Shown here one piece after another: positions 1,254 to 43,742 of a stretch of DNA of 64,000 nucleotides. The notes beneath the pieces were generated by a model. It saw nothing but the letters and a program-made list of their open reading frames with translations, searched no databases and had not been told where the DNA came from. This stretch comes from an uncultured Bdellovibrionales bacterium. Lineage in GTDB: Bacteria > Patescibacteriota > Minisyncoccia > Moranbacterales > UBA1568. Where the stretch lies: positions 221 through 64,220 of the forward strand of contig CAZOKB010000005.1 in NCBI GenBank assembly GCA_964580285.1, read 5' to 3'. The translations under genes and the position numbers were made by a program. Position 1 is the first letter of the stretch; each line of letters opens with the position of its first letter.

Positions 1254-1970
1254 ATGTCCGGACATTCACACTGGGCCACTACTCATCGCGCCAAAGGCGT
1301 CAACGATGCCAAGCGAGCCGCCGTATTTACCAAACAAGCGCGTCTGATTACCATTGCCGCTCGTGACGGCGCCGATCCGAGCATGAACTTCAAGCTCCGC
1401 CTTGCCATCGACAAGGCTCGAGGCGTCAACATGCCGAAAGATAATATCGACCGCGCCATTAAAGCTGGTAGCGGTGAGGGTAAAGACTTAGCCGCTATCG
1501 AAGAGGTGCTCTACGAAGGCTATGGCCCGGGCCAAATCGCTCTCCTCATCGAAGGCCTCACCGACAACAAGAACCGCACCGTTGGCGACGTCAAAACCAT
1601 TCTCTCCAAAAATGGCGGAAAGTTCGTGCCGAGCGGCTCGGTTTCCTTCATGTTCCAACACGCTGGTATCATTGTGTTCTCACTGGAAAAATATTCCGCC
1701 GAGACACTCGAAACAGAAACGATTGAATCCGGAGCTCTTGATTTTCGTGTCGAGGAAGATGTTTTCTTAGTGATGACTCAACCAGAAAACCTCCAGTCGG
1801 TCCGCAGTTATTTCGAAAGCAAAAACCTGACACCCGAATCTGCTGAACTCGGCTACCTCCCAACGCAGACCACCGCGCTTTCTCCAGCCGATCTGGAAAA
1901 ATTTGAGAAACTTAAAGAACTCCTCGAAGACCATATGGACATCGAGACGGTGTGGGACAATCTTCAATAA
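1254..1970 (+). CDS. yebC: YebC/PmpR family DNA-binding transcriptional regulator
   Basis: 238 aa; conserved N-terminus MSGHSHWATTHRAKG... typical of DUF28/YebC. Confidence 0.9.
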   Translation: MSGHSHWATTHRAKGVNDAKRAAVFTKQARLITIAARDGADPSMNFKLRLAIDKARGVNMPKDNIDRAIKAGSGEGKDLAAIEEVLYEGYGPGQIALLIEGLTDNKNRTVGDVKTILSKNGGKFVPSGSVSFMFQHAGIIVFSLEKYSAETLETETIESGALDFRVEEDVFLVMTQPENLQSVRSYFESKNLTPESAELGYLPTQTTALSPADLEKFEKLKELLEDHMDIETVWDNLQ

Positions 1971-1997
1971 ACAGCTAACAGAAATCAATCAACACAA

Positions 1998-2030
1998 AAC
2001 AGAGCAACACGTTGTTGAAGCTGTTTTTTT
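1998..2030 (+). terminator. Rho-independent terminator after yebC
   Basis: Imperfect hairpin aacagagcaaca-cg-ttgttgaagctgtt followed by a T7 run. Confidence 0.5.
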
Positions 2031-2132
2031 ATTTCCACCTGAATACACCTCCCCTCGTTTTTCCCTCTACCTCTCTTTACATAATTCTCCACGACCATTA
2101 CACATTGTGTACAGATAAATCGAGAAAGACAT

Positions 2133-2237
2133 CAGAAAAAAAGAAAATCCGGATGACACGATGATCATCCGGTATACCTGCGAGGCGCTTTGTTCAGGTC
2201 GGCCTCGGAACTTTACCCGCCTTGGGCGGGCCGCTAG
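2133..2237 (-). repeat. Cassette-associated repeat, module type B (copy B1): three hairpins, the last a rho-independent terminator
   Basis: Read on the minus strand: GCCCGCC-caag-GCGGG; GAGGCC-N13-GCGCCTC; CCGGATGA-tcatcgtg-TCATCCGG followed by a U-run. About 90% identical to copy B2 at 5560-5723. Confidence 0.7.
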
Positions 2238-2501
2238 CTATCGTCCGAAGTGATAACCGGCGGTAAAGAGGCTCGCCGCCAGGTCGACTACCAATCCCGT
2301 ATTCGTCGCGTGGTCGATACGGAGCAAGGTATTCAGCATTTCCTGCTGATCTTCCTCGAGCTCGACCCCACAGACCGCGCGAATCGTCGCATCTCCGCCA
2401 AATTCCTTCTCATTTTCTTCAAGCGACGATGTGTTCGTCATGACAAAATGTTTCTTGCCGTTGCGTTCTTCGATCAGAACGAAATAGATATTTTTACCCA
2501 T
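2238..2501 (-). CDS. Hypothetical small protein (cassette ORF, 87 aa)
   Basis: ORF directly followed by repeat B1; no recognisable domain. Confidence 0.4.
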   Translation of the reverse strand: MGKNIYFVLIEERNGKKHFVMTNTSSLEENEKEFGGDATIRAVCGVELEEDQQEMLNTLLRIDHATNTGLVVDLAASLFTAGYHFGR

Positions 2502-2539
2502 GGCACGTCTCCTGGTAAGTGAAAGGGACTACATCTCAA

Positions 2540-2616
2540 TGAGAACTCGATTATCAATCAAGACCTCAATAGAGAGGAGAAAGTGGTCGCTGCCATCTTT
2601 CTCCTAAAAAAATTCA
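2540..2616 (-). repeat. Cassette-associated repeat, module type A (truncated copy A1)
   Basis: Shares the tctcaatgaga...cctcaatagagaggag motif and the GGAGAAAG...CTTTCTCC hairpin with copies A2-A4. Confidence 0.55.
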
Positions 2617-2910
2617 TCAAAGGTTATCACCACGAAGCCTATTTTCATAAGCTTCTTCCTCCTCTTCGTAAGCGGGATCCATTCGATCTCCCCAACCTGC
2701 CCCCGTCGACCAGGTTCCCCTGGATTTGAGATCGATCTTTTTCCTTTTGATGAGAATGAGAAATAGCCGTTTCGTCTCATTATCTGTTATTTCTTGGGCG
2801 GTCTCCTCATTCCTCAGTCGGATACTGCTTACATCGTCCCAGTCATCATAGGTGATAACCACCCTCGTCCCACGAAATGATCCCGTGAAAACACGATAGA
2901 CTGTTGCCAT
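2617..2910 (-). CDS. Hypothetical small protein (cassette ORF, 97 aa)
   Basis: ATG preceded by an AGGAG ribosome-binding site; lies between repeat copies A2 (upstream) and A1 (downstream). Confidence 0.35.
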   Translation of the reverse strand: MATVYRVFTGSFRGTRVVITYDDWDDVSSIRLRNEETAQEITDNETKRLFLILIKRKKIDLKSRGTWSTGAGWGDRMDPAYEEEEEAYENRLRGDNL

Positions 2911-2984
2911 ATCTGCTCTCCTTATTCGAATGCCCTCGAACGATGGGTTGCGAAGAATTTCGCATATTCAATTAAAGAACTTCG

Positions 2985-3148
2985 TCTCGATGAGAGTTCA
3001 ATCATAAAGATTGAAGCCTCAATAGAGAGGAGCAATTGCATTGCAAGTTCTCCGAGAGGCCTTTTGTTCAGGTTGGCCTCGTAACCCGTCTCATACACGC
3101 GGAAGAGTATCGCGAAGGAGTTTCTCATCATCCTTGGGATGCAACTCG
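2985..3148 (-). repeat. Cassette-associated repeat, module type A (copy A2)
   Basis: Conserved box ctccttcgcgatactcttccgcgtgtatgag; hairpin GAGGCC-N13-GGCCTC; hairpin GGAGnAnTTGCAaTGCaannTCTCC; motif tctctattgag...gaactctcatcgaga. Confidence 0.7.
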
Positions 3149-3469
3149 TCAATCGGTGCAGAAATACGCATTGGCGCACTCTTCCGATTCGTCCTGGTCT
3201 GGAGGATCTGCAACGTCAACAATCTTTACGAATTGTCGGCCTTTGCAATCACACCATTCCCTGACGCTCGCTTCGAGTTGTTCGCCCGGTTCGCCATCAA
3301 GAGTGCTCAGAAAGCACTGCTTGAATTCTGCGACCGACGAATAGTAAGCGTCACCCGTACCCACAATGAACGTACTCGTGAAGAAACGTTGGTGACTACC
3401 GTTGTGTATATTGCTACCTTTCGGAAAAGCAACGTAGGTCACAGAAACGTCTCGATAGAGTGAAGTCAT
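3149..3469 (-). CDS. Hypothetical small protein (cassette ORF, ~106 aa)
   Basis: An internal ATG at 3469 with RBS GGAGAAAAG is preferred over the ORF-track start at 3574, which would overlap the upstream gene by 56 bp. Confidence 0.4.
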   Translation of the reverse strand: MTSLYRDVSVTYVAFPKGSNIHNGSHQRFFTSTFIVGTGDAYYSSVAEFKQCFLSTLDGEPGEQLEASVREWCDCKGRQFVKIVDVADPPDQDESEECANAYFCTD

Positions 3470-3518
3470 GCTTTTCTCCTTACCCCTGTACCCGAGGTGC
3501 GGTTGCCAAAATTGGCAA

Positions 3519-3728
3519 TTATTCCTGGTAGAACACGGTGATAGTGCAGTTGACGAACGGATCACCGAGCGCATTAATACCAGCGCACGTTGTCATCATT
3601 CGGCTGATAATAGAGAATGCTGTCACACAGCTTTTCTCCGCAAGCCAGCCGTTCACGTCGCGTTCGAGGGATGCGAACCCTTCGCCTTCATCGGCGGAGG
3701 TGAAGACCTTCACTTTTTCGGTTATCAT
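3519..3728 (-). CDS. Hypothetical small protein (69 aa)
   Basis: GGAGG ribosome-binding site 5 nt upstream of the ATG; forms a two-gene cassette with the 3149..3469 ORF; the spacer between them holds the palindrome TTGCCAAAATTGGCAA. Confidence 0.4.
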   Translation of the reverse strand: MITEKVKVFTSADEGEGFASLERDVNGWLAEKSCVTAFSIISRMMTTCAGINALGDPFVNCTITVFYQE

Positions 3729-3757
3729 GACGACCTCCTATATATTAGAAAGAACAA

Positions 3758-3862
3758 ATCTCTCAGAAACTTCGAGTTATCTCAAAGTTTCAGTAGAGAG
3801 GAGAAATTGCGTTGCAACTTCTCCAAGAGGCCCTTTGTTCGGGTCTGCTTCGGAACCCATGA
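3758..3862 (-). repeat. Cassette-associated repeat, module type A (copy A3, short)
   Basis: Has the same hairpin pair (GAGGCC-type and GGAGAAATTGCGTTGCAACTTCTCC) and the cagtagagaggag motif. Confidence 0.65.
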
Positions 3863-4057
3863 CTAATCCCGTTCGAGAACAACCGTTACGGCGTAGTATA
3901 AGTGATAAGGCTCATCGCTCATCTCTCCAAACGGCGCAATCGAAGTATTAGCACTCTTCACGCGAAACCCTTCGGCAAGCAATGAAGCAATTGCATCTTC
4001 GATCTCGTCTTCCGGAAGAGTGTTCTTCGACTGCCGAATAACAATTCTTGTTTCCAT
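3863..4057 (-). CDS. Hypothetical small protein (cassette ORF, 64 aa)
   Basis: Internal ATG with an AGGAAG ribosome-binding site; the longer ORF-track start would read through the upstream repeat, so it is rejected. Confidence 0.35.
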   Translation of the reverse strand: METRIVIRQSKNTLPEDEIEDAIASLLAEGFRVKSANTSIAPFGEMSDEPYHLYYAVTVVLERD

Positions 4058-4094
4058 GACATCTTCCTTTCTATAGAGTTGTACTCCAATTTCA

Positions 4095-4257
4095 GTGAAA
4101 AAACTCTTTCTCGATGAGAATTCAACTTGAGCTAAATTCTCAATAGAGAGGAGAAGTCGCATTGCAACTTCTCCGATCACCGTGAGGGATTTTCTTCAGG
4201 TTTTCCTCGAAACCCGACTCATCTACACGCGGAAGAGCATCGCGAAGGAGTTTTACA
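4095..4257 (-). repeat. Cassette-associated repeat, module type A (copy A4)
   Basis: Close to full-length match to A2, including a perfect 8-bp hairpin GGAGAAGT-tgcaatgcg-ACTTCTCC. Confidence 0.7.
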
Positions 4258-4674
4258 TCATCCTTTGGACGGATGGTTTTCGATGCCTCCAAATGAGAGT
4301 CGGCCCTCACGAACCATCCTTTCGAGGAGGGCGGGGGGATTGGTTAGGCACGAAGTCGTGTGCAAGGAGCCATTGTCCGGCGCACCGAATATCGTATATT
4401 TTCCATTTTCCAATTCCGATACGAAGAAATGCCAATCACCACCATCTTCTTCCCGGCAACTCGGAAAATGTACGAGTTGGTTCTCCTCTAGGAACGCAAT
4501 GAGATGATAAGCATCCATCATCGCCTGCGGAATAACCATCTTCATCATCCGTGCCATACTTCTCTCCTGTCCGGAAACCGCCGGGAATCGGTGGGTAAAA
4601 ATACCCGTGAATTGTGGAGGTGCTTGTCCGATGAGCTTTGCTTGTTTTCTCATCCTGACACATGAGTATAGCAA
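4258..4674 (-). CDS. Hypothetical protein (first ORF of the minus-strand array, up to 138 aa)
   Basis: ORF immediately downstream of a TTGACA-N17-TATACT promoter on the minus strand; start codon uncertain. Confidence 0.35.
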   Translation of the reverse strand: MLYSCVRMRKQAKLIGQAPPQFTGIFTHRFPAVSGQERSMARMMKMVIPQAMMDAYHLIAFLEENQLVHFPSCREEDGGDWHFFVSELENGKYTIFGAPDNGSLHTTSCLTNPPALLERMVREGRLSFGGIENHPSKG

Positions 4675-4710
4675 ATTATTACAATTCTGTCAATACTTAT
4701 TGCTTTATAT

Positions 4711-4739
4711 TTGACACTTTTTTAATATTTGTATATAAT
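4711..4739 (+). promoter_or_regulatory. Consensus sigma70-type promoter (TTGACA-N17-TATAAT) for the trmB-like gene; a divergent TTGACA-N17-TATACT promoter on the minus strand drives the cassette array
   Basis: Exact -35 and -10 hexamers with 17-bp spacing, read directly from the sequence. Confidence 0.6.
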
Positions 4740-4766
4740 ACGTATACACATTAACCGACTTTTACC

Positions 4767-5546
4767 ATGACTCAGCCATCGGAAGTGACACAGGCCCTCT
4801 ACACTCCCCTTAAGGAGCTTGGCTGCAGCGACCAAGAAATCGAGGTGTATACCACCTCGCTCATCCTTGGGCCGTCTCCCATCCAAGACATCGCCGCCCG
4901 GCTTGCCATTGCCCGGCCGAATGTTTACAAGATCATTCGCGCCCTCGAAGAGAAGGGCTTGGCTCATTTCTCTGAAAAGAAAAAGTACGCACGGAATTTC
5001 CTCGTGGTCTCGCCGGCTGTCATCCTGGAGCGCTTCCGCGCCAAAGAACAAGCAGTAGCCAAAGGAACGCAATCGCTCTCCCTGGCGATGCCCGACATCA
5101 TGGCACTGTACCGCCAAGGCGACATGCCTTCCACGGTAAAGCTCCTCGAAGGGGGTGATCAATTCCTCCGTCTCTTCTGGTCTGTCCTCGAAGAAGGGCG
5201 TTCGCCGATCCGTTTCATGGGATCAGCTGGTGAATTCATCAATTTCATCTCTTGGAGCGAGGAAAAGAAATGGATCAAAGAACGCGTGCGCCGTAACCTC
5301 TTCATTAATGTGCTGCTGCTTCCGGATGAAGACGCAAAAACGCTCCGCTCCCGCGATGAGAAAGAGATGCGCGAAACGCGATTTATGGAAGGCGCCGCAC
5401 CCTTTGCACCGGGCGTCATGCTCTTCGGGAACAAAGTTACCTTCTGGCAACCCAAAGCCCCTTCTGTCATCCTCATCGAAGACGAGTTCATTGTGGAAAT
5501 GTTTCGGAATATCTTTGATAGCCTATGGGAAAAAGCGAAAGAATAG
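4767..5546 (+). CDS. TrmB-family transcriptional regulator (N-terminal winged helix-turn-helix)
   Basis: 259 aa; N-terminal wHTH resembling sugar-specific TrmB regulators; C-terminal effector-binding-like domain. Confidence 0.6.
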   Translation: MTQPSEVTQALYTPLKELGCSDQEIEVYTTSLILGPSPIQDIAARLAIARPNVYKIIRALEEKGLAHFSEKKKYARNFLVVSPAVILERFRAKEQAVAKGTQSLSLAMPDIMALYRQGDMPSTVKLLEGGDQFLRLFWSVLEEGRSPIRFMGSAGEFINFISWSEEKKWIKERVRRNLFINVLLLPDEDAKTLRSRDEKEMRETRFMEGAAPFAPGVMLFGNKVTFWQPKAPSVILIEDEFIVEMFRNIFDSLWEKAKE

Positions 5547-5559
5547 CTCTGTTTTTCAA

Positions 5560-5723
5560 GAAAAAGAAAATCCGGATGACATGCTGATCATCCGGTATAT
5601 CCGTGAGGCGCTTTGTTCAGGTCGGCCTCGGAACTTTACCCGCTTTGGGCAGGCCGTCTCATCTACACGTCGAAGAGAAGCCAAAAAACGGGAGCTTTTG
5701 TGGTTTTCTAAAAATACCACTGA
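5560..5723 (-). repeat. Cassette-associated repeat, module type B (copy B2) with a bidirectional terminator
   Basis: Near-identical to B1 (aaaatccggatgacaTGCtgatcatccgg...gaggcgctttgttcaggtcggcctcggaactttacccgc...), and also contains the A-type conserved box gtctcatctacacg. Confidence 0.7.
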
Positions 5724-6047
5724 TCAATCCCACTCAATCGAAACGCTTTTTGCCATAAGTTCATTAGCCAAAAAAACTGGCAAATATTCCCTGAATAAAG
5801 AACGAGCATCCTCATCCCCTATCGATTCGAACGCATCGGCAAGAAAGTCTTCAATAGTAATATTTCCTCCCTGATCAAAAATGTCGATGTCATAACTGTT
5901 CCCTCGAAGATATCGGATAATTTCGGCGACATTAGCCATCAGAATGATTTTCGAAAGAAATTGTTCGAGAATCCTGGCCTTGCGTTCATCAGACATCTTG
6001 GCAGATACCTTCACTGCAGCGCTATCCATTTCTGCACTCATAATCAA
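5724..6047 (-). CDS. Hypothetical acidic small protein (107 aa; isolated cassette)
   Basis: ORF followed by repeat B2. Confidence 0.4.
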   Translation of the reverse strand: MIMSAEMDSAAVKVSAKMSDERKARILEQFLSKIILMANVAEIIRYLRGNSYDIDIFDQGGNITIEDFLADAFESIGDEDARSLFREYLPVFLANELMAKSVSIEWD

Positions 6048-6229
6048 CTCCTCTCCTTCTAGGTCGGTTGTGAATGAACGAGTTAAACTTCAAAATTCTT
6101 CGAGCTTAACGGTCTATTCTACATCAAAACCATCATAAAGTCAATAGTAAGTCATTAATTTTTAAAAATAAATATATTACTTATAATGTTTACAAATAAA
6201 GCAATATATACTAAAATAGTCATATAATT

Positions 6230-6973
6230 ATGACTATAGAAAAAAACAACTCTCTCCAGAGCGCCCTGAAATCCGGGCTTTCAGCCAAGGCATCCGCGGT
6301 ATATGTCGCCCTACTCGAAGCAGGCATGCCCTTAAGTCCGAAGGTTATCATAAGCCGAGCTCGGCTGCATCGGCAGTATGTTTATGACGCATTACAAGAG
6401 CTTCAGAATAAGCGCCTTGTTATTTCCTCTGACGAAGGCCGTCGAATAAAATACGGCGCGACAAGTCCAGACCGGCTTTTGCAAGAAGCTGAAAAACGAC
6501 GTATGGATACGATCGATGGGGTTCGCGATCTGATGAAACTCTACGATCGCTCTCCTGCTGGTGTGGTAGAAGTCATACGCGGCAGTGCCGCGGTCATCAA
6601 AAACGAGCTCTTGATGCTTCAAACAGCAAAAAAGGGAGATTTTCTCGATATCATCGGCGGCGCCGGCATGAATTGGGTAAAACTTTTCGGTGACAAGATT
6701 CCCAAATGGGAAGCGCTTCGCAAAGACAAGGACATCAAGCTTCGATATATTGGTTCCGGAGAAGACGTGAAGCATAATAAAGAAGAGAGCATCATAGAGA
6801 ATGAGTCTCGCGCTATCCCTGGTATAGGCAATATCGTAAACGTGAGTATCCGCCCAGATAGTGTGAGCTTCAATATTTATGAACCGGAAATTATGACCGT
6901 ACGCGTGAAGAATGCCGCGACTGTCACGAGTCAACGAGCTCTTTTTGAAGTATTATGGAATATCGCAAAGTAA
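6230..6973 (+). CDS. TrmB-like transcriptional regulator (second paralog)
   Basis: 247 aa; N-terminal wHTH similar to the 4767..5546 product. Confidence 0.5.
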   Translation: MTIEKNNSLQSALKSGLSAKASAVYVALLEAGMPLSPKVIISRARLHRQYVYDALQELQNKRLVISSDEGRRIKYGATSPDRLLQEAEKRRMDTIDGVRDLMKLYDRSPAGVVEVIRGSAAVIKNELLMLQTAKKGDFLDIIGGAGMNWVKLFGDKIPKWEALRKDKDIKLRYIGSGEDVKHNKEESIIENESRAIPGIGNIVNVSIRPDSVSFNIYEPEIMTVRVKNAATVTSQRALFEVLWNIAK

Positions 6974-7584: not shown

Positions 7585-8238
7585 ATGCACTACCACCCGC
7601 TCGTTCAGTACTTCATTTTGGAAGGCGTCCCGGTCCTTACTGTTACGCTGCTTCTCATGCTGCCGATTATTGCAACACTCGTTGCCATCTTCCGCCAAGT
7701 CATCGGGATTAAGGCCTTCGGTATCTATACACCCTCCATCATCACCTTTGCGCTTTTTGCCATGGGTGAACTCAAGTATGGCGTGGCAGCCTTCGTATCC
7801 GTCATCGTGGTCGGTATGCTGGCCCGTCTCATCATGAAGCGTTTTCGTTTACTGTACCTTCCTCGAGTCGCCATTACGCTCACTATCATTTCGCTCACCA
7901 TGCTCTTCCTCCTTTTTATTGGTGGGCTTAATCAGCGCACCGGCTTCGCTGGCGCCTCGGTCTTCCCGCTCCTCATCATGATTACGCTCGCCGAAAAATT
8001 TGTGGCTACCCAAATTGAAAAAGGTACTCGTATTGCGGTTATCTTGGCGATTGAGACTTTGGTGATTTCGACTGTCGGCTATTTTCTTATCCGTTCCGAA
8101 ACCATCACCGGGGCCGCTCTTGCCTACCCGCTCTGGGTTATTACCCTCACCCTTCTGATCAATATCGCCCTCGGCAAATGGTCAGGACTGCGACTCTCCG
8201 AATACTGGCGCTTCCGAAAAGTTTTCAAACACTTGTAG
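7585..8238 (+). CDS. Seven-TM membrane protein (7TM associated with ATP-grasp/transglutaminase-like systems)
   Basis: 217 aa, six to seven hydrophobic helices; immediately upstream of two ATP-grasp genes. Confidence 0.5.
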   Translation: MHYHPLVQYFILEGVPVLTVTLLLMLPIIATLVAIFRQVIGIKAFGIYTPSIITFALFAMGELKYGVAAFVSVIVVGMLARLIMKRFRLLYLPRVAITLTIISLTMLFLLFIGGLNQRTGFAGASVFPLLIMITLAEKFVATQIEKGTRIAVILAIETLVISTVGYFLIRSETITGAALAYPLWVITLTLLINIALGKWSGLRLSEYWRFRKVFKHL

Positions 8239-32069: not shown

Positions 32070-33038
32070 ATGAGCCAAAAAGCTCTCTTTTCGAAAATGT
32101 ATATAGTGAAACGTCAGGAGGAAGGAATACGTCTGGATAGTTTTTTGTTTGGACGAGTAGACCAAGATCTCCCGGGAGTATTTTCTCGGGGTGCTCTCAC
32201 AGAAGGTATTCGGTGTGGACAAGTCGTGCATAACCAGAAACTGTCCTTGAAACCAAGCCAAAAGGTCCGTATGAATGATGAAATTCGCTGCGAACTCTCA
32301 TTACCAGAAGCATCAAAAAATCTCTCAGGGAAGCGAAATGCTCTTCAGTCGGCAGTTCTTTTTGAAGATGAACAGGTTATGTTTATCAATAAGCCAGCAG
32401 GACTCATGACTCATCCGGTGCGCCAGGGAGATATTTCGCTTGTAGACTGGATAGAAGAACATTATCCACAAGTTATGCTGGTTGGGGATAATTCGTTGCG
32501 GCCTGGGATTGTGCACCGTTTGGATAAAGATACTTCAGGTGTTCTAGTAATCGCAAAGACCGAGGCTGCTTTTGTTGAGCTGAAGCGACTTTTTCAGGAG
32601 AGAACAGTAGAAAAAACGTATTTTGCTCTTACTGAGGGTCATCTGAGTCAATCAGCAGGGAAAATAACGTTTACCTTAACTCGAATTCCTCACAGTGAAA
32701 AACGTTCGGTGCGCCGAGCGACCAATGATCCAGAGGCGCGACCAGCAATTACTCACTACCGAGTACTGAGGCAGCTCCAGAGTAGTGATTTTGTTGAAGT
32801 GTCACCCAAAACAGGGCGCACCCATCAGATCAGGGTGCATTTTTCTGCTCTGCAGCACCCGATTATCGGAGATCGTCTCTATGGGTTTCGTCGCAGAGCA
32901 TCTTCTCTGAAAGCTGCTCGTCACATGCTGCATGCGGGCAAACTCTCACTATCTCTTTTTGGGAAAACCTACAGTGTCGAATCTCCCCTGCCAGAAGATT
33001 TTGAAAAACTTCTTCAAGACTTGACGGCTGGCTGCTAA
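32070..33038 (+). CDS. rluD: RluA/RluD-family pseudouridine synthase (S4 domain plus catalytic HRLDxxTSG motif)
   Basis: 322 aa; contains HRLDKDTSGVLVIAKT. Confidence 0.85.
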   Translation: MSQKALFSKMYIVKRQEEGIRLDSFLFGRVDQDLPGVFSRGALTEGIRCGQVVHNQKLSLKPSQKVRMNDEIRCELSLPEASKNLSGKRNALQSAVLFEDEQVMFINKPAGLMTHPVRQGDISLVDWIEEHYPQVMLVGDNSLRPGIVHRLDKDTSGVLVIAKTEAAFVELKRLFQERTVEKTYFALTEGHLSQSAGKITFTLTRIPHSEKRSVRRATNDPEARPAITHYRVLRQLQSSDFVEVSPKTGRTHQIRVHFSALQHPIIGDRLYGFRRRASSLKAARHMLHAGKLSLSLFGKTYSVESPLPEDFEKLLQDLTAGC

Positions 33039-33156
33039 TTAGTTATGCTAGTGAGGCTTTGAAATCCGGTATCTGCCGTATTTTTCGTTTAGAACACAGG
33101 TTAATTGATTTTCTTGCCGCTGCCAGAGGAGAAGGCCGCGGAAGACAGAGAAGACT

Positions 33157-33651
33157 ATGCATCAGGCACTCATTGCTTTTAATAAGAATATCCGCGCTAC
33201 GAAGCAGTTTTCAGACATGCAGGCGGGTGACGTGGTAAAGATTTTCCGTAAGATTAAGGAAGGAAATAAAGAACGTTTGCAGGCTTTTCAGGGCACGATT
33301 ATTGCTCTGCGCGGCGGTCAGAGTTCATCTCCTACTATTACAGTCCGTAAGGTTTCGTTTGGGGTGGGTGTCGAGCTCGTGCTCCCCTTGTATTCTCCGC
33401 AAATTGATCATATCGAATTCGTGAAGCGCACGCGTGCTCGTCGCGCCAAGCTGTACTTCGTGCGTGAGAAGTCGGTAAAGGTGCTCTCCAAGAAGCTTAA
33501 AGAAGTTTCCATGAAGAAGGTAGTGGTGCCTGAAGAGGGGAAGAAAGAAGAAGTAACCCCGGAAGTATTAGAAGAAGCAATTGTTGCTAAAGAAGCCGCT
33601 CAGGCAGCCAAAGAAGCGGAAGGAGTGGCAGCAGAAGAAACGAAGGAATAG
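33157..33651 (+). CDS. rplS: 50S ribosomal protein L19 with a Lys/Glu-rich C-terminal extension
   Basis: The first ~115 aa match the L19 family; roughly 45 extra low-complexity C-terminal residues. Confidence 0.85.
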   Translation: MHQALIAFNKNIRATKQFSDMQAGDVVKIFRKIKEGNKERLQAFQGTIIALRGGQSSSPTITVRKVSFGVGVELVLPLYSPQIDHIEFVKRTRARRAKLYFVREKSVKVLSKKLKEVSMKKVVVPEEGKKEEVTPEVLEEAIVAKEAAQAAKEAEGVAAEETKE

Positions 33652-33964: not shown

Positions 33965-34048
33965 GCCCAGGTGGCGGAATTGGTATACGCGCTAGCTTGA
34001 GGTGCTAGTTCTCGCAAGGGATTGGAGGTTCGAGTCCTCTCCTGGGCA
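33965..34048 (+). tRNA. tRNA-Leu (anticodon GAG), type II with a long variable arm
   Basis: Manual cloverleaf fold: acceptor GCCCAGG/CCTGGGC, anticodon loop TTGAGGT. Confidence 0.8.
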
Positions 34049-34122
34049 CAAAAAGCGGAAAGCTGGCGGCGAGCCGGCTTTCTTCTTTTGGAGACTTCCT
34101 TTACAATAAGACGGTATCAGAA

Positions 34123-34196
34123 GGGCAATTAGCTCAGTTGGTTAGAGCATCTCGTTTACACCGAGAGGGTCAGAGGTTCGAGTCCTCTATTGCCCA
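34123..34196 (+). tRNA. tRNA-Val (anticodon TAC)
   Basis: Cloverleaf fold; anticodon loop TTTACAC; T-loop TTCGAGT. Confidence 0.8.
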
Positions 34197-34340
34197 CAAA
34201 CCTAAGGTTTGCAAGAATCAGTTTCTTTGATATTGTTGACTTTGTGGTTGCAAAAGCCGGAGTAGCTTCTGCCCATGGCGGACCCGCCTCGGGCGGGCAG
34301 TGGTTCCTCGTAGTTTAGATCAAGAGGCATTATCAAATAT

Positions 34341-34412
34341 GCCGGAGTAGCTCAGTGGTAGAGCGAAGGACTGAAAATCCTTGCGTCGGCAGTTCAATTC
34401 TGCCCTCCGGCA
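34341..34412 (+). tRNA. tRNA-Phe (anticodon GAA)
   Basis: Cloverleaf fold; anticodon loop CTGAAAA. Confidence 0.8.
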
Positions 34413-34460
34413 CAGGCGTGAAAAGAAGCAAGAGAAAAGCGTGAGAGATGGAATGGCTTT

Positions 34461-34533
34461 GGGACTGTAGCTCAGCGGTTAGAGCAGGCGGCTCATAACC
34501 GCTTGGTCGATGGTTCGAATCCATCCAGTCCCA
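34461..34533 (+). tRNA. tRNA with CAT anticodon (elongator Met, or Ile2 after lysidinylation by TilS)
   Basis: Cloverleaf fold; G1:C72 pair, so not an initiator tRNA; anticodon loop CTCATAA. Confidence 0.7.
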
Positions 34534-34590
34534 CTAGGGTTGAAAGACATGTATTATTGCTTTCGTTGAGATCTTTCTCAAGAGAGTGCC

Positions 34591-34662
34591 GCGGGTATCG
34601 TATAGCGGCTATTATGTGACCTTGCCAAGGTCAAGATACGGGTTCGACTCCCGTTACCCGCT
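34591..34662 (+). tRNA. tRNA-Gly (anticodon GCC)
   Basis: Acceptor GCGGGTA/TACCCGC; anticodon loop TTGCCAA. Confidence 0.75.
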
Positions 34663-34807
34663 CAGCTAAAAATGAGGCTCTCCAGAGCCTTGTTTTTTAT
34701 TACCCCTAAAGACAGTCGAACTAGGGGTGGACAAAATTTATAAAATATGCTATTATGTATCGTCGTCAAGCTTGGCGACGCGTGTCCTTTTGAAAGGAGT
34801 TATCAAA

Positions 34808-35203
34808 GTGAACAATCAACTGAGAGCGGCATTTCTTCAAGCGGGCCTGATTCCTGAAAAGCAGGTTCGTGAAGCAGACGCCGAGCAATTCCTTCGCGCG
34901 GAAATGGAGGCAGCAAAGCGGGCAAAACCCGCAAAGGAAAAAGAAAAGCGTATGGGAATTCTTGCGAAGACCACCGCGCCCGACCTCTTTCGTCGCGAAG
35001 CTCGAAAGACACTCCTTCTTTACCCAGATGTCTTGCAAGAGATCATTAGTCTCGCGCATGCTCAAGGGATGAAGGAGAAAAAGTCCAAAGGTGGTTCGTG
35101 GCTTGTCGCGAATCTCTACCAACTTCGCGAGGCGCTCACCCAACCCGGTCTGTCTGACGAAGCCAAAAAGGCACTCGTCGACAAGCTGTTCGCCAACAAG
35201 TAG
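34808..35203 (+). CDS. Hypothetical Lys/Ala-rich protein (GTG start preferred)
   Basis: AAAGGAG ribosome-binding site before GTG at 34808; followed by a strong nested hairpin terminator at 35268-35310. Confidence 0.4.
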   Translation: MNNQLRAAFLQAGLIPEKQVREADAEQFLRAEMEAAKRAKPAKEKEKRMGILAKTTAPDLFRREARKTLLLYPDVLQEIISLAHAQGMKEKKSKGGSWLVANLYQLREALTQPGLSDEAKKALVDKLFANK

Positions 35204-35382
35204 GTTCGCGGTTGCGGACTGTTTCTACGGAGGAACCAAGCTATGATTGTCATGTGAACAACCGCTATTGCCCAATGGGTAGAGCGGTTTTCTTATTTTT
35301 ATACGAAGTTAGTCCTAACCCTCTGTACCAGCCAGCTCAAAAGAACCAAAAGATCCGGATTTCCCGGGTCTTTTGATTTTAT

Positions 35383-35425
35383 CCACAGCTTATACAGCTG
35401 ATATTGGCTGTGGATAGCCTGTGTA
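35383..35425. promoter_or_regulatory. Palindromic pair of DnaA-box-like motifs remote from oriC
   Basis: TTATCCACAGC-N19-GCTGTGGATAG: a 10-bp inverted repeat carrying TTATCCACA and CTATCCACA, within an AT-rich noncoding stretch. Confidence 0.4.
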
Positions 35426-35549
35426 TACGTACTTATGCTTTATTACCAAACAAAGTGAGCGAAATTAAAGCTTGCTTTTATTTCCGAACGCAGTGCCGGT
35501 AAAATAGGGTTAATACCCTTTATTATAGCCAAATACCAGTATTTAAGTA

Positions 35550-35578
35550 TTGACATAGTATTAAAAGTATGCTAATAT
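35550..35578 (+). promoter_or_regulatory. Sigma70-type promoter TTGACA-N17-TAATAT upstream of the 3D-domain gene
   Basis: Hexamers and 17-bp spacing read directly from the sequence. Confidence 0.5.
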
Positions 35579-35647
35579 ATACAGTTGCATGAAATGGCAA
35601 CCCAGCTCCTGTACGCAGGACCGCGGCTAAGCTTCTGAAAGCAATCT

Positions 35648-36208
35648 ATGCGTTTATGGGTGATGGTAGCGTTTCTTTTGAGCATGAGTATGCTCCCAAT
35701 AGCTACCGCGCAGGCAGAAAGCACCGTTGAATATCAAAATACGAAAGAATTGCCCCTTGAAAAGACCTATGATTTCCGTGAGGATCCCTTTCTGTTAGAG
35801 TGGACCTTTGGGCAAACCGAAAGTGCGGTTGCTCCAGCTGAAACTGAAGCGAAAGAGCTTGAAAACAAGGTCCTGGCTCGTTGGAAAGACAAGCAGGCGA
35901 TAAAATGGGCCGCTCTTCCTCGGGAGAAATTCATTGTTAATGCTTCGGCGTATACGGCTGCGGCTAATGAATGTGGTAATAATAAGGGCATTACCTCTTC
36001 CGGTCTCAAGGTGGAGGAAGGACGCACCCTGGCTTGCCCACCAGAATTTCCTTTCGGTGCTAAAATCTACATCGAAGGTGTCGGTGAGCGTCGTTGTGAA
36101 GATCGGGGTGGTGCGATTAAGGGAAACCATGTGGATATCTACATGGAAACCAAGAGCGATGCCTTTGCCTTTGGACGCCAGCTTCTTGAGGCGTACGTGG
36201 TCGAATAA
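35648..36208 (+). CDS. Secreted 3D-domain (MltA-like/YuiC-like) cell-wall-binding protein
   Basis: 186 aa; signal peptide; C-terminal 3D domain with conserved Asp residues. Confidence 0.75.
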   Translation: MRLWVMVAFLLSMSMLPIATAQAESTVEYQNTKELPLEKTYDFREDPFLLEWTFGQTESAVAPAETEAKELENKVLARWKDKQAIKWAALPREKFIVNASAYTAAANECGNNKGITSSGLKVEEGRTLACPPEFPFGAKIYIEGVGERRCEDRGGAIKGNHVDIYMETKSDAFAFGRQLLEAYVVE

Positions 36209-36298
36209 CTTTTTGGAAAAGTCCGTCACAAAGGAGGCGGATTTTTCCTTTTATTGACTCACGACTCCCCTTTCGATACACTGAAATACATGACAATT

Positions 36299-36369
36299 GG
36301 TCCGATGGCCGAGCGGTTAGGCACAGGTCTGCAAAACCTTTTACAGCGGTTCAACTCCGCTTCGGACCT
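36299..36369 (+). tRNA. tRNA-Cys (anticodon GCA)
   Basis: Acceptor GGTCCGA/TCGGACC; anticodon loop CTGCAAA; D-arm is irregular; preceded by TTGACT-N17-TACACT (36254-36282). Confidence 0.6.
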
Positions 36370-36381
36370 CAGGTTGTATAT

Positions 36382-36466
36382 GCCGTGGTGGCGGAATTGG
36401 TAGACGCAGAGGACTTAAAATCCTCCGACTGAATAAGTCGTGCGAGTTCGATTCTCGCCCGCGGCA
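36382..36466 (+). tRNA. tRNA-Leu (anticodon TAA), type II
   Basis: Acceptor GCCGTGG/CCGCGGC; anticodon loop CTTAAAA; followed by terminator aaaagaccgg...ccggtcttttt (36469-36501). Confidence 0.8.
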
Positions 36467-36483
36467 CATAAAAAAGACCGGAA

Positions 36484-37124: not shown

Positions 37125-38084
37125 TTAGACTATTTGCCAGCCGCACTCTGTTTCGATGATTCTTCCGGGAACCTCAAAACCGCTTGCAAGCTTGTGTCCT
37201 CCCCCACCAAGTTGTTTGGCGATAGCCGAAACATCGATACCGTGGTGTTCAAGTGAGCGGAGACTCCCTCGGACGAGCCCTCCTGCTCGTTCAGAAAGTA
37301 CCAAAACATATTTTGCTTCAGGCACAGCGCTGAGTATAGTAGTGACTTGATAAATATCATCGATAACCGCCGCGCACTCGGTCACGTCTTGTTCGGTAAT
37401 GACCGTGGTGAGTAGGCCGCTTTCGGGGTGGAGTCGGGCTCGCTCAAAAGCCTTTCCCCAAAGGTGAAGGGCGGCCACTTTCTTCTTAGAAAAAATTAGT
37501 TCAGCAATTTTAGCTGCCGGAGCACCGAGACGCATGAGCTCTGAGGCGATACTCATAACCTGGGCCGTTACGTTGGCGTGCTGGAAGGCACCAGTATCAA
37601 ACATGAGGCCGAGGAGGAGTGCTGTTGCAATGGGCTTAGTGATAAGCGCTTTATTTGACTGTAAAAAAAGATAAATGAGTTCTGAACTGGACGAGTATTC
37701 TGAATCGATAGCGACAATATCTCCGGAGAGCTGGATATCCGGGTGATGGTCAATAAGGACAGTAACGGTATCTGGTGTGAACCGGTATACGATGGTCTGA
37801 AATCCTCTATCGACACTATCGCAAGCGATGACAGCATCGTAGGTAGATAGATCAAGTGAATCTGGATGTTGAAATTCAACTTCGAAAAGAGCGTGCAGAT
37901 TTTCAGGGAACGGATCAAGACAACCGATATCAACAGTCTTGCCTTGATGTTCAAGATAATATTTGAGAGCTACGTTCGCGCCTACGGTATCTGGATCTGG
38001 TCTTGAATGGGCAAAAAGCAGGATGCGTGAAGCATTCTGTATAACGTAGCGGAGAGTTTTCCATTCTTTTTGGAAATCGCGCAT
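37125..38084 (-). CDS. nrnA: DHH/DHHA1 phosphoesterase (NrnA-like nanoRNase/pAp phosphatase)
   Basis: 319 aa; DHH motif; C-terminal GGGH (DHHA1) motif. Confidence 0.75.
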   Translation of the reverse strand: MRDFQKEWKTLRYVIQNASRILLFAHSRPDPDTVGANVALKYYLEHQGKTVDIGCLDPFPENLHALFEVEFQHPDSLDLSTYDAVIACDSVDRGFQTIVYRFTPDTVTVLIDHHPDIQLSGDIVAIDSEYSSSSELIYLFLQSNKALITKPIATALLLGLMFDTGAFQHANVTAQVMSIASELMRLGAPAAKIAELIFSKKKVAALHLWGKAFERARLHPESGLLTTVITEQDVTECAAVIDDIYQVTTILSAVPEAKYVLVLSERAGGLVRGSLRSLEHHGIDVSAIAKQLGGGGHKLASGFEVPGRIIETECGWQIV

Positions 38085-38127
38085 AGTGTGTTTGGGATCA
38101 TATTCCCCTCGCGTGATCAGTCAGGTC

Positions 38128-38505
38128 TTAGATAGACGGGTCATCGACTGAAGATTGAGAGGATCCGGTTTCTTGTTTAATTTCTCGGAGAAGTTTTTCA
38201 ACAACATCGGCTGATTGTTCGGTATGGTCAGCTCCAATGAGGATGCGGGGGCGAATCTTCATAGAAAGTTGTGCATGAAGGGCTTGCTGAAGTCGTCCTT
38301 GTTCATGACGGAGGGTTGCGATAGCGTAGCCTTCTTCTTGTTCCGGAAACACTGAAACGGATATACGAGTGTACCGGAGATCAGGCGTGGTGTCAACCTT
38401 AGCCACAGTAACAATAACCCCCTGCTTGAGAGAGATTTCGCGTTCGAGTAATTGACCAAAAATGCCTCGAACAAGCTCGTTCATTTTTTCGATGCGGAGA
38501 GACAT
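38128..38505 (-). CDS. rbfA: Ribosome-binding factor A
   Basis: 125 aa; RbfA KH-like fold signature. Confidence 0.85.
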   Translation of the reverse strand: MSLRIEKMNELVRGIFGQLLEREISLKQGVIVTVAKVDTTPDLRYTRISVSVFPEQEEGYAIATLRHEQGRLQQALHAQLSMKIRPRILIGADHTEQSADVVEKLLREIKQETGSSQSSVDDPSI

Positions 38506-38530
38506 ACTGTTGCAAGAAGGAAAGTAAAAA

Positions 38531-38602
38531 GTGCCCCCAGTATGAATCGAACATACATCTCTCCCTTAGGACGGGATAGCTCTATCCATTGAGCTATGGA
38601 GG
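38531..38602 (-). tRNA. tRNA-Arg (anticodon CCT)
   Basis: Cloverleaf fold on the minus strand; anticodon loop GTCCTAA. Confidence 0.75.
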
Positions 38603-38640
38603 CGATTCGGGTGGGGGGAGTACAAGATTATTGTTTAGGG

Positions 38641-38713
38641 TGGACCATGCCGGATTCGAACCGGCCACCCCTTCCATGCCATGGAAGTGCTCTACCAAAT
38701 GAGCTAATGGCCC
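38641..38713 (-). tRNA. tRNA-Ala (anticodon GGC), G3:U70 identity pair present
   Basis: Acceptor GGGCCAT/ATGGTCC with a G3-U70 wobble; anticodon loop ATGGCAT. Confidence 0.75.
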
Positions 38714-38759
38714 AAATACCAGTATAACAGTTATCAATATGACAAATCTTTAACGAAGA

Positions 38760-40640
38760 GTCAATGGTTGAGATTATTCCCCTCGTAGGCCATTTTTGGT
38801 GAGAGGATGTAGTATATTGACATATTAGTATATATATTGCTAAATATATTTTAAGAAGATATTTTTAAATGAGGTGTATTTACATTGAGTATGTTCCACG
38901 TGGAACGCAACTAGACGCTCATTTTTTGCTTAAGAAATCCATGCCAGTTAGAAGAGACTTATTTTTTCTATTTTGCTCCACGTGGAATACTTTTACTTGT
39001 GTAGTTAGAATTTTAAAAAAATATACGTATTATTTTTTCCACGTGGAACATTTTAAATTTACAGCTTTTGAAATGTATAATATATTTTTCCACGTGGAAC
39101 AAATATTATTGAGGTTAATTATTGTAAATACACTCTTCCCTAGATACAAATTGCTTATATAAGCTAAAAAATGAAAAAAATATTCTGGTAAGAATCTAGG
39201 AAGCTCTGTTTCACGTGGAACAAATGCTTTTTTATAGAGTTAACTTCTAATTATTAATAATTGTTTTAAAATGTTCCACGTGGAATAATATATAAAACAT
39301 TAAAAAAATCTTTTTTAACAGTCAGTTTGTATTGATAGGTATGCCTCATTATATTGTTCCACGTGGAACTATACAATAATAAAAACAATAGTAAGATGTA
39401 AGGGTATTTTTTTGGATTTAAAAAAATTTTATATCCAAGATAAAGTAATTGTTTTAACTGTTTCACGTGAAACATTATCTTTTAGTGAGAATAATTTAAG
39501 GCAATTTTTATGTTTAAAGAGTTTTGTTTCACGTGAAACAGAGTTTCCTAGATTCTCACCAGAATAATTTATACAGATTAATGCTTTATTTAAAGCAATA
39601 ATTGTTATTTTAAATTAAAACGATATTTGTTCCACGTGGAAAATTGTCTATAATTTCTTCTATCCGCATAGTGCTCTATAATTGAAAAATAGAAATATTT
39701 AAAAAAACAAGAAAATATTTATTATTGTTCCACGTAGAACGATTATTGAAAATAAAATCAAGAATCATATGTTCCACGTGGAATTATGGAAAGAATTATT
39801 TGTAATAAGTCCATCGTTTTTGTTCCACATGAAGTAAATGCTGCTTTTTATTTTTTTATGAATAAGCTTGTTCCACGTGGAATTATAAGGAATGATTTTT
39901 TTTATAGAGTATTTTTAGAGTTTTTTTGTGATTGTTCCACGTGGAACAAGGTTTCCTAGATTCTCACCAGAATAATTTATACAGATTAATGCTTTATTTA
40001 AAGAAATAATTGTTATTTTAAATTAAAACGATATTTGTTCCACGTGGAAAATTTTGAGAGAAGGTTTTAATGTTTTAAATGAATATAATAATTTTTGAGT
40101 ATATAAAAAAACTTCGTGTTTTTTTGTTCCACATGGAACAATACAGTTTTTGTTATTGACATAATTTATATATTATTGCTTAATATAAAATATTATGTAT
40201 ACATCGTTTTTTGGAGGGTATTATGGAAATATGAAATGGATTTTATTCCCAAAAAAGTGAGTATTGTTGCATTACTATATTGGTACCATGCGAGCATGTA
40301 TGGTATGAATATTAATTTGCCATAGAGGTCAATAATTTTGGTTTGTTTACTCATCTAAAGCTTGTTTTTTTGATGAATTATTCAATATCTACCCCATTCT
40401 TTATGGGAGACAGAGAAATTCTTATGCTTGTGATAGTTTTGTGATTTTTCTGCAGACTTAATCTAGGAAGCTAATTATTTTTTCGTATTTCGTGGTGCAA
40501 AAATTTCAAGAACAAGAGGAGATCTTGTTCGCTGCAGCAGGGGGGTCTTTCTTGATGAAATAATGGAGATGAGAGCGTATCGTTTTTAAATAAAGACTAT
40601 ATTAAAGAAGTTGATGATTTTCTCTGCGCATATGGTATAA
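38760..40640. other. AT-rich (~25% GC) non-coding island
   Basis: Composition drops sharply relative to the ~48% GC flanks; the ORFs predicted here are low-complexity and judged spurious. Confidence 0.8.
38902..40140. repeat. parS: Array of 17 parS-like 16-bp palindromes (ParB-binding centromere sites)
   Basis: Exact canonical TGTTTCACGTGAAACA at 39459-39474 and 39525-39540. Perfect-palindrome variant TGTTCCACGTGGAACA at 39933-39948. Mixed-half-site TGTTTCACGTGGAACA at 39207-39222. One-mismatch sites at 38902, 39035, 39086 and 40125. Two-mismatch sites at 38974, 39272, 39355, 39628, 39770, 39869 and 40036. Weaker sites at 39726 and 39821. Spacing is irregular, 42-121 bp. Confidence 0.85.
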
Positions 40641-40659
40641 TATTCTCAAAGAAAAACCT

Positions 40660-41643: not shown

Positions 41644-41654
41644 CGGAGTTATAT

Positions 41655-42698: not shown

Positions 42699-42757
42699 GT
42701 TTTTCTTGATCCATTTATAAAAAAACAAAACACCTATTTGATGGGTGTTTTTTGTGC

Positions 42758-42834
42758 TGGTGGACAATACTGGATTCGAACCAGTGACCTTCACAATGTC
42801 AATGTGACGCTCTAACCAACTGAGCTAATTGTCC
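42758..42834 (-). tRNA. tRNA-Val (anticodon GAC), CCA encoded
   Basis: Minus-strand cloverleaf; anticodon loop TTGACAT; downstream hairpin aaacacc...gggtgtttt at 42727-42757. Confidence 0.8.
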
Positions 42835-43733: not shown

Positions 43734-43742
43734 ACCAAAAAG

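Follow-up and report, generated by a model that had tools for sequence, protein, structure and literature searches.

Structured RNA connectors between unrelated small genes in TrmB-associated arrays of Moranbacteria and related Parcubacteria

The stretch of DNA analyzed here (the window) comprises 64,000 nt of contig CAZOKB010000005.1 from an uncultured bacterium of the Moranbacterales lineage (assembly GCA_964580285.1), and it holds an array of small open reading frames (ORFs) joined by copies of one non-coding repeat, which we call the connector. The connector is a previously undescribed structured RNA motif without a counterpart in Rfam, and connector-bearing operons, divergent from TrmB-family regulators, are found in Moranbacteria, Pacebacteria, and related Parcubacteria. 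We favor, with moderate confidence, the explanation that connectors mark the boundaries between cistrons on the mRNAs of TrmB-regulated operons, where they would serve processing, stability, or translational insulation, and that the genes between them are shuffled by recombination between direct repeats.

Anatomy and folding of the connector

Read in mRNA sense, which is the minus strand of the window, the connector is built from two modules. The 3′ module is a highly conserved 45-nt box, GGATGATGTAAAACTCCTTCGCGATRCTCTTCCGCGTGTAGATGAG, followed by a candidate H-type pseudoknot with an A-rich loop, formed around the hairpin H1 (GAGGCC..GGCCTC). The 5′ module consists of the hairpin H2 (GGAGAA..TTCTCC), the hairpin H3 (TCTCTATTGAG..CTCATCGAGA), which H2 immediately abuts, a single-stranded (A)GUUCUUU tail, the optional hairpins H4 and H5, and then a Shine-Dalgarno sequence. 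The adjacent hairpins H2 and H3 with the pyrimidine-rich tail 3′ of H3 (AGTTCTTTC) form the core of the element.

Four A copies and two B copies of the repeat separate or follow the seven small ORFs (Table 1), and the remaining part of the window has no further copy. A preliminary description of this DNA had grouped the repeats into one family, and the grouping holds far beyond chance. The 16-mer at the H2/H3 junction, TCTCCTCTCTATTGAG, has seven matches with up to three mismatches in the window against 0.75 expected, the A copies being the four matches with zero to two mismatches; a 26-mer of H1 has three matches against 0.00 expected and a 20-mer of the box two against 0.01. With two covariance models, H2-H3 copies were located at exactly four places in the 64 kb, each of them on the minus strand (4094-4174, 3744-3824, 2970-3053, and 2519-2604). 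For A1, the fold has a z-score of -4.9 and the covariance-model score is 87.5 bits.

Box, H1, H2, H3, H4, H5, and terminator are combined differently in A1-A4, B1-B2, and the copies of relatives (numbered L001 onward), so that the family is a mosaic of modules. The preliminary description gave all type A modules to each A copy, which is correct for A1 and A2, whereas A3 is box-less and A4 is reduced to H2, H3, and tail. Its statement that type B ends in an intrinsic terminator also stands, but the hairpin that B shares with A is H1 and not the GGAGAA hairpin H2. B1 (2138-2233) and B2 (5561-5656) are 93% identical, and an intrinsic terminator closes each.

The position of the H2-H3 unit within the operon is regular. 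No copy precedes the first cistron, and after the last cistron a B module with its terminator stands instead. Among copies between co-oriented ORFs, 28-90 nt separate the H2-H3-tail unit from the next start codon, and the longer spacings hold shared hairpins, namely H4 in A2, L009, and L033a and H5 in L004b, L019, and L033c. The box has stop codons in all three frames and, by inspection of its sequence, is not palindromic. ORF6 of the window and a 67-aa ORF of L033, which are unrelated, stop inside the box in different frames, the stop codon of ORF6 lying within the A1 box.

Covariation was counted over 23 distinct copies from 12 Parcubacteria loci. In these, 96.2% of the pair cells form standard pairs, compared to 73.5% in shuffles and at most 58% with slid partners, a percentage that is inflated by the fitting of the alignments to the model; this concern is lessened, though not removed, by the two controls and by RNAalifold run independently. 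Changes on both sides were seen in 21 of 23 pairs, and none of 500 shuffles reached any observed pairing measure. RNAalifold, applied to a MAFFT alignment of eight copies, returned the identical structure with nine compensated pairs. The compensation of stems proposed in the preliminary description is confirmed, and it became much stronger once relatives were added.

The same 23 copies contain 58 G-U cells and 5 A-C cells, which implies that the mRNA-sense strand is the folded one. The sense-strand fold was the more stable in 19 of the copies (mean -28.3 versus -22.2 kcal/mol; Wilcoxon p = 5e-4), and all 23 are oriented like their flanking ORFs. Comparison of the copies thus indicates that structural selection acts on the mRNA-sense strand.

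What is conserved and what varies differs between the two hairpins. H3 has a 4-bp lower stem, an asymmetric 3x2 internal loop, and a covarying upper stem of 12 bp, and H2 is wholly replaceable across copies (GGCGAG/CUCGCC, GGUGGAA/UUCCACC, CCCGGUU/AACCGGG). Constant across Moranbacteria and Pacebacteria are the H3 lower stem and internal loop, UCUYUAU...UMGAGA, and the tail (A)GUUCUUU. Upstream of H2, pairing between a GGGUU sequence and the H1 loop can give an H-type pseudoknot whose third loop is A-rich. When 11 copies were aligned by hand, 59 of 66 stem 1 cells and 52 of 62 stem 2 cells are paired, with several pair types, and the covariation is suggestive of such a pseudoknot.

With Rfam 15, only tRNAs reached the gathering score in the window, and no relevant match was obtained at E-values up to 5 in the region 1900-6300 or up to 1 in L002, apart from two chance matches. 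No description of the connector motif or of these TrmB arrays was found in the literature.

Some simpler roles for parts of the connector were considered and rejected. Connectors are ruled out as promoters, as a promoter scan found no sigma-70-like sites within them. A general terminator role for H2 is not upheld, since only the H2 of A1 was flagged, with a poor T-run, and the L046 copy precedes a separate strong terminator. H2 and H3 were also considered as double-stranded DNA operators for TrmB, and this was set aside because the stems vary freely within one genome, the G-U asymmetry points to RNA, and the promoters carry another palindrome. Pairing of the box GAUGAG with CUCAUC of H3 shows no covariation, and L019 and L033b retain the box with an altered H3. 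The box as a relic coding sequence was likewise dismissed, as the peptide-like reading common to A1 and A2 does not extend past the box, its frame is broken in A2 by a 2-nt indel, and the L007 box is non-coding.

Table 1. Connectors, genes, and signals of the array and its regulators, in window coordinates
Feature	Position	Strand	Remarks
A1 connector	4094-4263	minus	box 4218-4263; candidate pseudoknot/H1 4175-4216; H2 4150-4174; H3 4109-4149; tail 4094-4108
A2 connector	2945-3133	minus	box 3089-3133; candidate pseudoknot/H1 3054-3088; H2 3029-3053; H3 2985-3028; tail 2970-2984
H4, extra hairpin of A2	2951-2964	minus	GCGAAATTCTTCGC; H4 also in L009, L033
A3 connector	3744-3859	minus	box-less; candidate pseudoknot/H1 3825-3859; H2 3800-3824; H3 3759-3799; tail 3744-3758
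A4 connector	2519-2604	minus	without box or H1; H2 2576-2604; H3 2534-2575; tail 2519-2533; 73-85 bits
B1 terminal module	2138-2233	minus	small hairpin GCCCGCC..GGCGGGT 2216-2233; H1/candidate pseudoknot 2182-2207; intrinsic terminator stem 2149-2172 and T-run
B2 terminal module	5561-5677	minus	3′ of ORF7; box remnant 5658-5677; small hairpin 5639-5656; H1 5605-5630; terminator 5572-5595
Short leader module with ribosome-binding site (RBS)	3473-3516	minus	ORF4-ORF3 junction; no A copy at this junction
ORF1	2238-2501	minus	87 aa, pI 4.9; final cistron; Shine-Dalgarno
ORF2	2617-2910	minus	97 aa, pI 5.0; without Pfam match; presence varies by strain
ORF3	3149-3469	minus	106 aa, pI 4.5; orphan
ORF4	3519-3728	minus	69 aa, pI 4.5
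ORF5	3863-4057	minus	64 aa from RBS-supported ATG, pI 4.5
ORF6	4258-4557	minus	99 aa (most likely start), pI 5.4; first cistron; connector-free upstream side
ORF7	5724-6041	minus	105 aa, pI 4.4; single cistron; own promoter 6116-6144
Array promoter	4665-4693	minus	TTGACA-17-TATACT with TG extension; 11/12 consensus matches (promoter scan)
TrmB1 promoter	4711-4739	plus	TTGACA-17-TATAAT; palindrome TGTATA-N7-TATACA (4730-4748) overlaps -10 element
TrmB-family regulator 1 (TrmB1)	4767-5546	plus	Pfam TrmB 4.8e-11; divergent from array; orthologs 73-97% identical
TrmB-family regulator 2 (TrmB2)	6230-6973	plus	Pfam TrmB 3.6e-6; divergent from ORF7; 21% identical to TrmB1

Array genes, relatives, and strain variation

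The small minus-strand ORFs of the preliminary description were recovered with two corrected starts. ORF6, listed there as 4258-4674, most likely starts at the ATG at 4557, which stands behind the RBS AGGAGAG, the TTG at 4674 lying inside the promoter; for ORF7 the start codon is the ATG at 6041. By sequence inspection, a Shine-Dalgarno sequence precedes each of the seven ORFs. The layout of six ORFs behind one consensus promoter and ending at the B1 terminator was confirmed, as were the two TrmB-family regulators beside the array (Pfam). Each regulator is divergent from a small-gene unit that a B module ends.

The cargo consists of real genes that are unrelated to one another and nearly orphan. 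Their proteins in the window are acidic (pI 4.4-5.4), have no significant pairwise similarity in an all-against-all BLASTP, as had been claimed, and lack any match in Pfam, PHROG, NCBIfam, or PADLOC. ORF3 is a true orphan, matching none but its own cluster among 5.8e9 clusters, with the exact protein on at least 24 contigs, and ORF1 has about six distant homolog clusters among 1.8e9 representatives. More generally, each small ORF is found again, with its exact sequence, on 4-17 metagenomic contigs. Judged from its codon changes, ORF1 is under purifying selection: compared with the L033 allele it has 16 synonymous and 7 non-synonymous codon changes, and third positions account for 17 of 25 substitutions. 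A structure model of ORF1 (pLDDT 89) gave no significant fold match in the Protein Data Bank. At the ORF4-ORF3 junction, the short leader is 88.6% identical over 44 nt to L033 3819-3862, where it precedes an unrelated 204-aa gene.

Cargo of the other arrays is also unannotated, save for a weak radical-SAM match in L002 and the larger genes of L042. Cargo families common to several arrays were sought by all-against-all BLASTP and none emerged, the similarity of ORF2 to an ORF of L009 being marginal (pairwise E = 0.002). In L002 (1109-2515, 2640-3125), a connector precedes a 468-aa protein with a CxxxCxxC motif, which gives the weak Radical_SAM match, and an upstream leader of about 500 nt holds two tiny RBS-preceded ORFs (22 and 19 aa). 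From this gene content, the L002 locus may be a cluster resembling those for ribosomally synthesized and post-translationally modified peptides.

Relatives were searched for with a degenerate DNA pattern for the H2/H3 junction and then with covariance model R1 and its broadened version R2. Other genomes hold copies, and so does a second array belonging to the same species; the preliminary description had advised a search of the genome and of relatives. True copies, retaining the 3′ half of H3, were identified by the DNA pattern in L002, a GTDB-representative metagenome-assembled genome, and in the metagenome contigs L004, L007, and L009; the metagenome matches in L005, L006, L008, L010, L012, and L013 lack this half and were set aside. 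A phage origin was looked for in a pattern scan of viral contigs, which gave 0 matches. The L002 locus is syntenic with that of the window (yebC ... TrmB, ruvC) and differs in gene content. A TrmB-family gene adjoins the locus in L002, L007, and L009, that is, in all three of these loci with enough flank, an adjacency that carries weight because the DNA motif alone had led to them.

Further copies are arranged in various ways. The second array of the same species, on L033, reads TrmB - 204 aa - connector - 67 aa - connector - 90 aa - connector - 81 aa. An array of five copies on L042, whose TrmB is labeled Candidatus Pacebacteria at NCBI, includes a response regulator and an SSF transporter. 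L044, a further Parcubacteria contig, has an array with two copies, and L019, L025, and L046 have single copies.

Cassette content varies between strains at constant repeats, much as the preliminary description envisaged, and two such differences were resolved. Arrays identical to that of the window, with ORF2 present, are found in L032, L034, and L037. ORF2 is absent from seven contigs (L033, L035, L036, L038-L041), which have one connector between ORF3 and an ORF1 allele. This connector is itself a mosaic, with a box 96% like that of A2, an H1 closest to L007, an H2 96% like that of A3, and an H3 and leader closest to A4; a simple A2/A4 hybrid was considered for it and replaced by this finer mosaic. 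L019 equals the window through ORF6 and the box, after which H1, H2, H3, and the downstream leader differ, as does the gene after A1. The homology breakpoints thus fall at different conserved segments, after the box in L019 and inside the mosaic element in the loss of ORF2, and the connectors themselves are reshuffled.

Other differences concern the borders of the array. In L033, L036, L038, and L039, the place of yebC behind ORF1 and a B-type terminator is taken by a Fic gene; a further TrmB gene lies beyond Fic in L033 and L036, and the second L033 array lies beyond that TrmB gene. L019 carries an rve-type insertion sequence (IS) just upstream of the operon -35 element (~4693), between it and the TrmB1 promoter, leaving the operon promoter intact. 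The IS transposase of L019 (666-1709) has 347 aa with HTH_32, rve, and rve_3 domains. Several short-read assemblies (L001, L014-L018) break exactly at the B repeats or the A1 box. The B and A1 repeats, or strain heterogeneity at them, fragment assemblies of the locus.

Possible roles of the connector

In the explanation that we favor, a sigma-70-type promoter at 4693-4665, probably under TrmB1 via TGTATA-N7-TATACA, would drive co-transcription from ORF6 to ORF1, with a stop at B1. On this RNA, connectors would fold autonomously and mark the cistron limits, their hairpins directing endonuclease processing and/or blocking exonucleases. The hairpins would also keep each RBS from pairing with upstream coding sequence and provide it with a constant context, and the pyrimidine-rich tail may be a ribosome standby or cleavage site. 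Any ORF inserted between a pair of connectors would thus gain expression. Exchange among connectors by homologous recombination or gene conversion could delete, insert, and swap small genes with no need for a dedicated integrase; because connectors are direct repeats of 75-96% identity, such exchange would account for the cassette-like polymorphism without a dedicated enzyme. The alternative offered in the preliminary description, small genes shuffled by a modular family of terminators or attenuators, comes close to this explanation.

The palindrome TGTATA-N7-TATACA, also present upstream of a TrmB1 ortholog (79% identical) in L020 at about 7960-7978, is a candidate TrmB1 operator. Genes for RNase Y and PNPase occur in related contigs.

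Phage T7 early genes have RNase III sites between them. Like the connectors, RNase III-type and stabilizing hairpins are irregular, with an asymmetric internal loop, lie between cistrons beside single-stranded AU- or U-rich sequence, and are sense-specific. The connector differs in being a conserved unit of two hairpins and a tail, with optional pseudoknot and box, which is reused before unrelated genes and across genomes, and cleavage is a proposal here. Together with the T7 sites, selective RNA processing and stabilization in operons (PMC10667835, PMC5927463) and RNase Y sites with stabilizing hairpins (PMC11780869) are the closest working analogues.

Several observations, in addition to the inflated pairing percentage noted above, weigh against this explanation. 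The box is conserved as primary sequence across species, which fits poorly with an RNA-boundary role and is explained better by a protein-binding or DNA recombination site. The L046 copy, which has no tail, follows a stop codon and precedes a separate strong intrinsic terminator, and no gene lies downstream, a context implying that the H2-H3 unit is neither the terminator itself nor strictly a 5′ leader. As for the regulators, the L025 copy has no adjacent TrmB gene, many TrmB loci (L023-L031) are without the motif, and most of the later loci were retrieved via TrmB homologs, so that the TrmB association is partly an ascertainment effect. The association of connectors with TrmB is therefore strong but not absolute.

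Alternatively, the connector could be a cis-regulatory RNA in which a common factor (RNA-binding protein, small RNA, or metabolite) binds H2-H3, with or without the pseudoknot, and co-regulates all cistrons in their stability or translation, so that the repeats would be regulatory sites and not passive boundaries; we consider this possible but unlikely. Such a role would account for the conserved nucleotides of the H3 internal loop, lower stem, and tail amid covarying stems, for the candidate pseudoknot with its conserved A-rich loop, and for the fixed position of the module upstream of ribosome-binding sites, and H2 pairs a Shine-Dalgarno-like GGAGAA with an anti-Shine-Dalgarno-like UUCUCC. 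However, the sequence of H2 is freely replaceable, Rfam gave no match, and the genes downstream (orphans, a response regulator, a transporter, and a radical-SAM-like protein) do not make a coherent set; cargo that is functionally unrelated and mostly orphan is unlike that of riboswitch regulons. A riboswitch-like regulon in particular is unlikely because the cargo is unrelated and the L046 copy lacks a downstream gene.

A more speculative proposal, to which we give a somewhat smaller chance, is a gene-cassette system specific to the candidate phyla radiation (CPR) and analogous to integrons. In it, the connector would give three-frame stops, an mRNA boundary, and an RBS leader and would double as a capture or shuffling site, served by a recombinase or by programmed recombinase-independent exchange, for orphan genes that are possibly TrmB-controlled episymbiont effectors or anti-defense proteins. 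Anti-CRISPR and anti-defense loci (acr with the helix-turn-helix autoregulator aca) resemble the array in their small, acidic, unrelated orphans of fast turnover beside a helix-turn-helix (HTH) regulator. Unlike them, the array belongs to the chromosome of an episymbiont lineage, at about 10 kb from dnaA, and its TrmB-type regulator is divergent; structured connectors between genes are not a known acr feature.

The preliminary description likened the array to that of a sedentary chromosomal integron. The features on which it drew were found, namely unrelated, promoterless, co-oriented ORFs with homogeneous structured repeats, one promoter, and one terminator, but the integron reading of them was not sustained. 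Chromosomal integron arrays (attC sites such as Vibrio cholerae repeats, or clusters of attC sites lacking integron-integrases) likewise have often orphan ORFs behind one upstream promoter; the structured repeat that bounds each ORF, and inside which some ORFs stop, has conserved ends and stems that vary, and cassettes differ between strains. In attC x attI recombination, attC folds as single-stranded DNA of the bottom strand, whereas selection here is on the mRNA-sense strand. Moreover, intI was not detected, attI is lacking, the repeats combine several modules (3′ module, 5′ module, and leader) with more than one breakpoint position, and the partner is a TrmB-family regulator. The absence of canonical cores, already conceded in the preliminary description, was confirmed: neither strand of 2101-6100 has an inverse-core/core (RYYYAAC...GTTRRRY) pair 45-150 nt apart, and GTTGAAT occurs only in A1, by chance. 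Phage_integrase, rve, resolvase, Y1 transposase, and OrfB domains were not detected in a Pfam scan of 49 ORFs of the window, in which seven larger ORFs have no match of any kind. Membership in the integrons is thus not supported, and cassette-like behavior is supported in part.

A broader, integron-like site-specific system, with connectors or the box as attachment sites and a recombinase encoded elsewhere that captures and excises cassettes of connector plus ORF, would fit further details. The nearly orphan ORFs lie behind one promoter, their content varies between strains at the repeats, homology between L019 and the window stops directly after the conserved box, ORFs terminate within the three-frame stops of the box, identical non-coding modules flank unrelated genes in different genomes, and the box is conserved by sequence rather than structure. 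Set against these are the missing attC core pairs, the structured mRNA-sense strand, a box that is not palindromic, two strain differences without a common crossover point, and the lack of any detected recombinase (tyrosine or serine) or transposase domain in the window or next to the arrays in L002, L009, L033, and L042. We regard this system as improbable, and a dedicated recombination system acting at the box as hardly more credible.

Less probable still is a selfish mosaic repeat that colonized the intergenic spaces of an older operon, in the manner of miniature inverted-repeat transposable elements, the repetitive extragenic palindromic (REP) sequences and bacterial interspersed mosaic elements (BIME) of enterobacteria, or the BOX elements of Streptococcus pneumoniae. 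REP, BIME, and BOX elements can stabilize upstream mRNA and promote rearrangements. They share with the connector the mosaic of interchangeable hairpin modules and a location between genes in transcribed operons, and an rve-type IS has been active at the locus in one strain. Tens to hundreds of copies of those elements are scattered over a genome, and REPs have a link with REP-associated tyrosine transposases (RAYT). All connector copies in 64 kb, by contrast, are confined to one array of 2 kb, and neither a RAYT nor a Y1 transposase was detected in the window. The sense orientation of all 23 copies, the conserved spacing to start codons, and the alignments, in which no terminal inverted repeats or target duplications are visible, also argue against a selfish element.

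Neutral local duplication of a gene with its 3′ untranslated region, followed by divergence into functionless repeats, would suit the tandem clustering of copies and the 93% identity of B1 and B2, yet it is effectively refuted by the covariation and cross-genome conservation, that is, compensatory changes at 12 loci in several candidate phyla, and by non-coding parts 75-95% identical around dissimilar ORFs, which is the opposite of neutral decay.

Genomic setting and significance

The source names given for the RuvC cluster and for the TrmB homologs place the organism in Candidatus Moranbacteria of the Parcubacteria. The array is flanked by yebC and ruvC, and the window is chromosomal. About 10 kb from the array lie dnaN (13764-14894, minus), dnaA (15149-16591, minus), and then yidC (17397-18131); the GC skew changes sign near 14 kb, and a gap at 16.6-17.4 kb is AT-rich. 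From gene order and base composition, the region 13764-17400 is probably a replication origin, which would place the array about 10 kb from oriC. Elsewhere in the window, seven tRNA genes (Leu, Val, Phe, Met, Gly, Cys, Leu) lie on the plus strand at 33965-36467. A stretch of low GC (0.34-0.37) at 38000-43800, with tRNA genes at its bounds (38531-38714, 42758-42834), encodes a TSP3-repeat protein (40660-41643) and two ORFs without Pfam match (41655-42698, 42825-43733) and may be a small genomic island.

In another Moranbacteria genome (L023/L024), a TrmB1 ortholog (73%), small genes, a second TrmB, and a polyprenyl synthase lie between rluD-like and rplS genes, which are adjacent in the window (32070-33651). 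The module of TrmB and small genes thus occupies different chromosomal sites in different genomes. Other TrmB-family genes in L033 (1717-3523) and L025 (5182-12647) stand beside Fic, AAA_14/DUF4143, and Schlafen/AlbA_2 genes, and L025 has three TrmB genes in 6 kb with small orphan genes interleaved. TrmB units seem to mark variable, defense-like regions in Parcubacteria.

The genomes of CPR bacteria are tiny, and very few regulatory RNAs have been described from them. If the finding holds, the connector would be a well-supported new structured RNA motif for these bacteria, and standardized non-coding connectors, by turning each ORF into a plug-in unit of an operon under a regulator, would show how a small genome may arrange and express orphan genes of fast turnover. 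The locus would then show an integron-like population pattern without detectable integron machinery, which bears on how cassette arrays are called in metagenomes. With its acidic, unrelated, and strain-variable cargo beside an HTH regulator, it is a good place to seek episymbiont effectors and anti-defense proteins.

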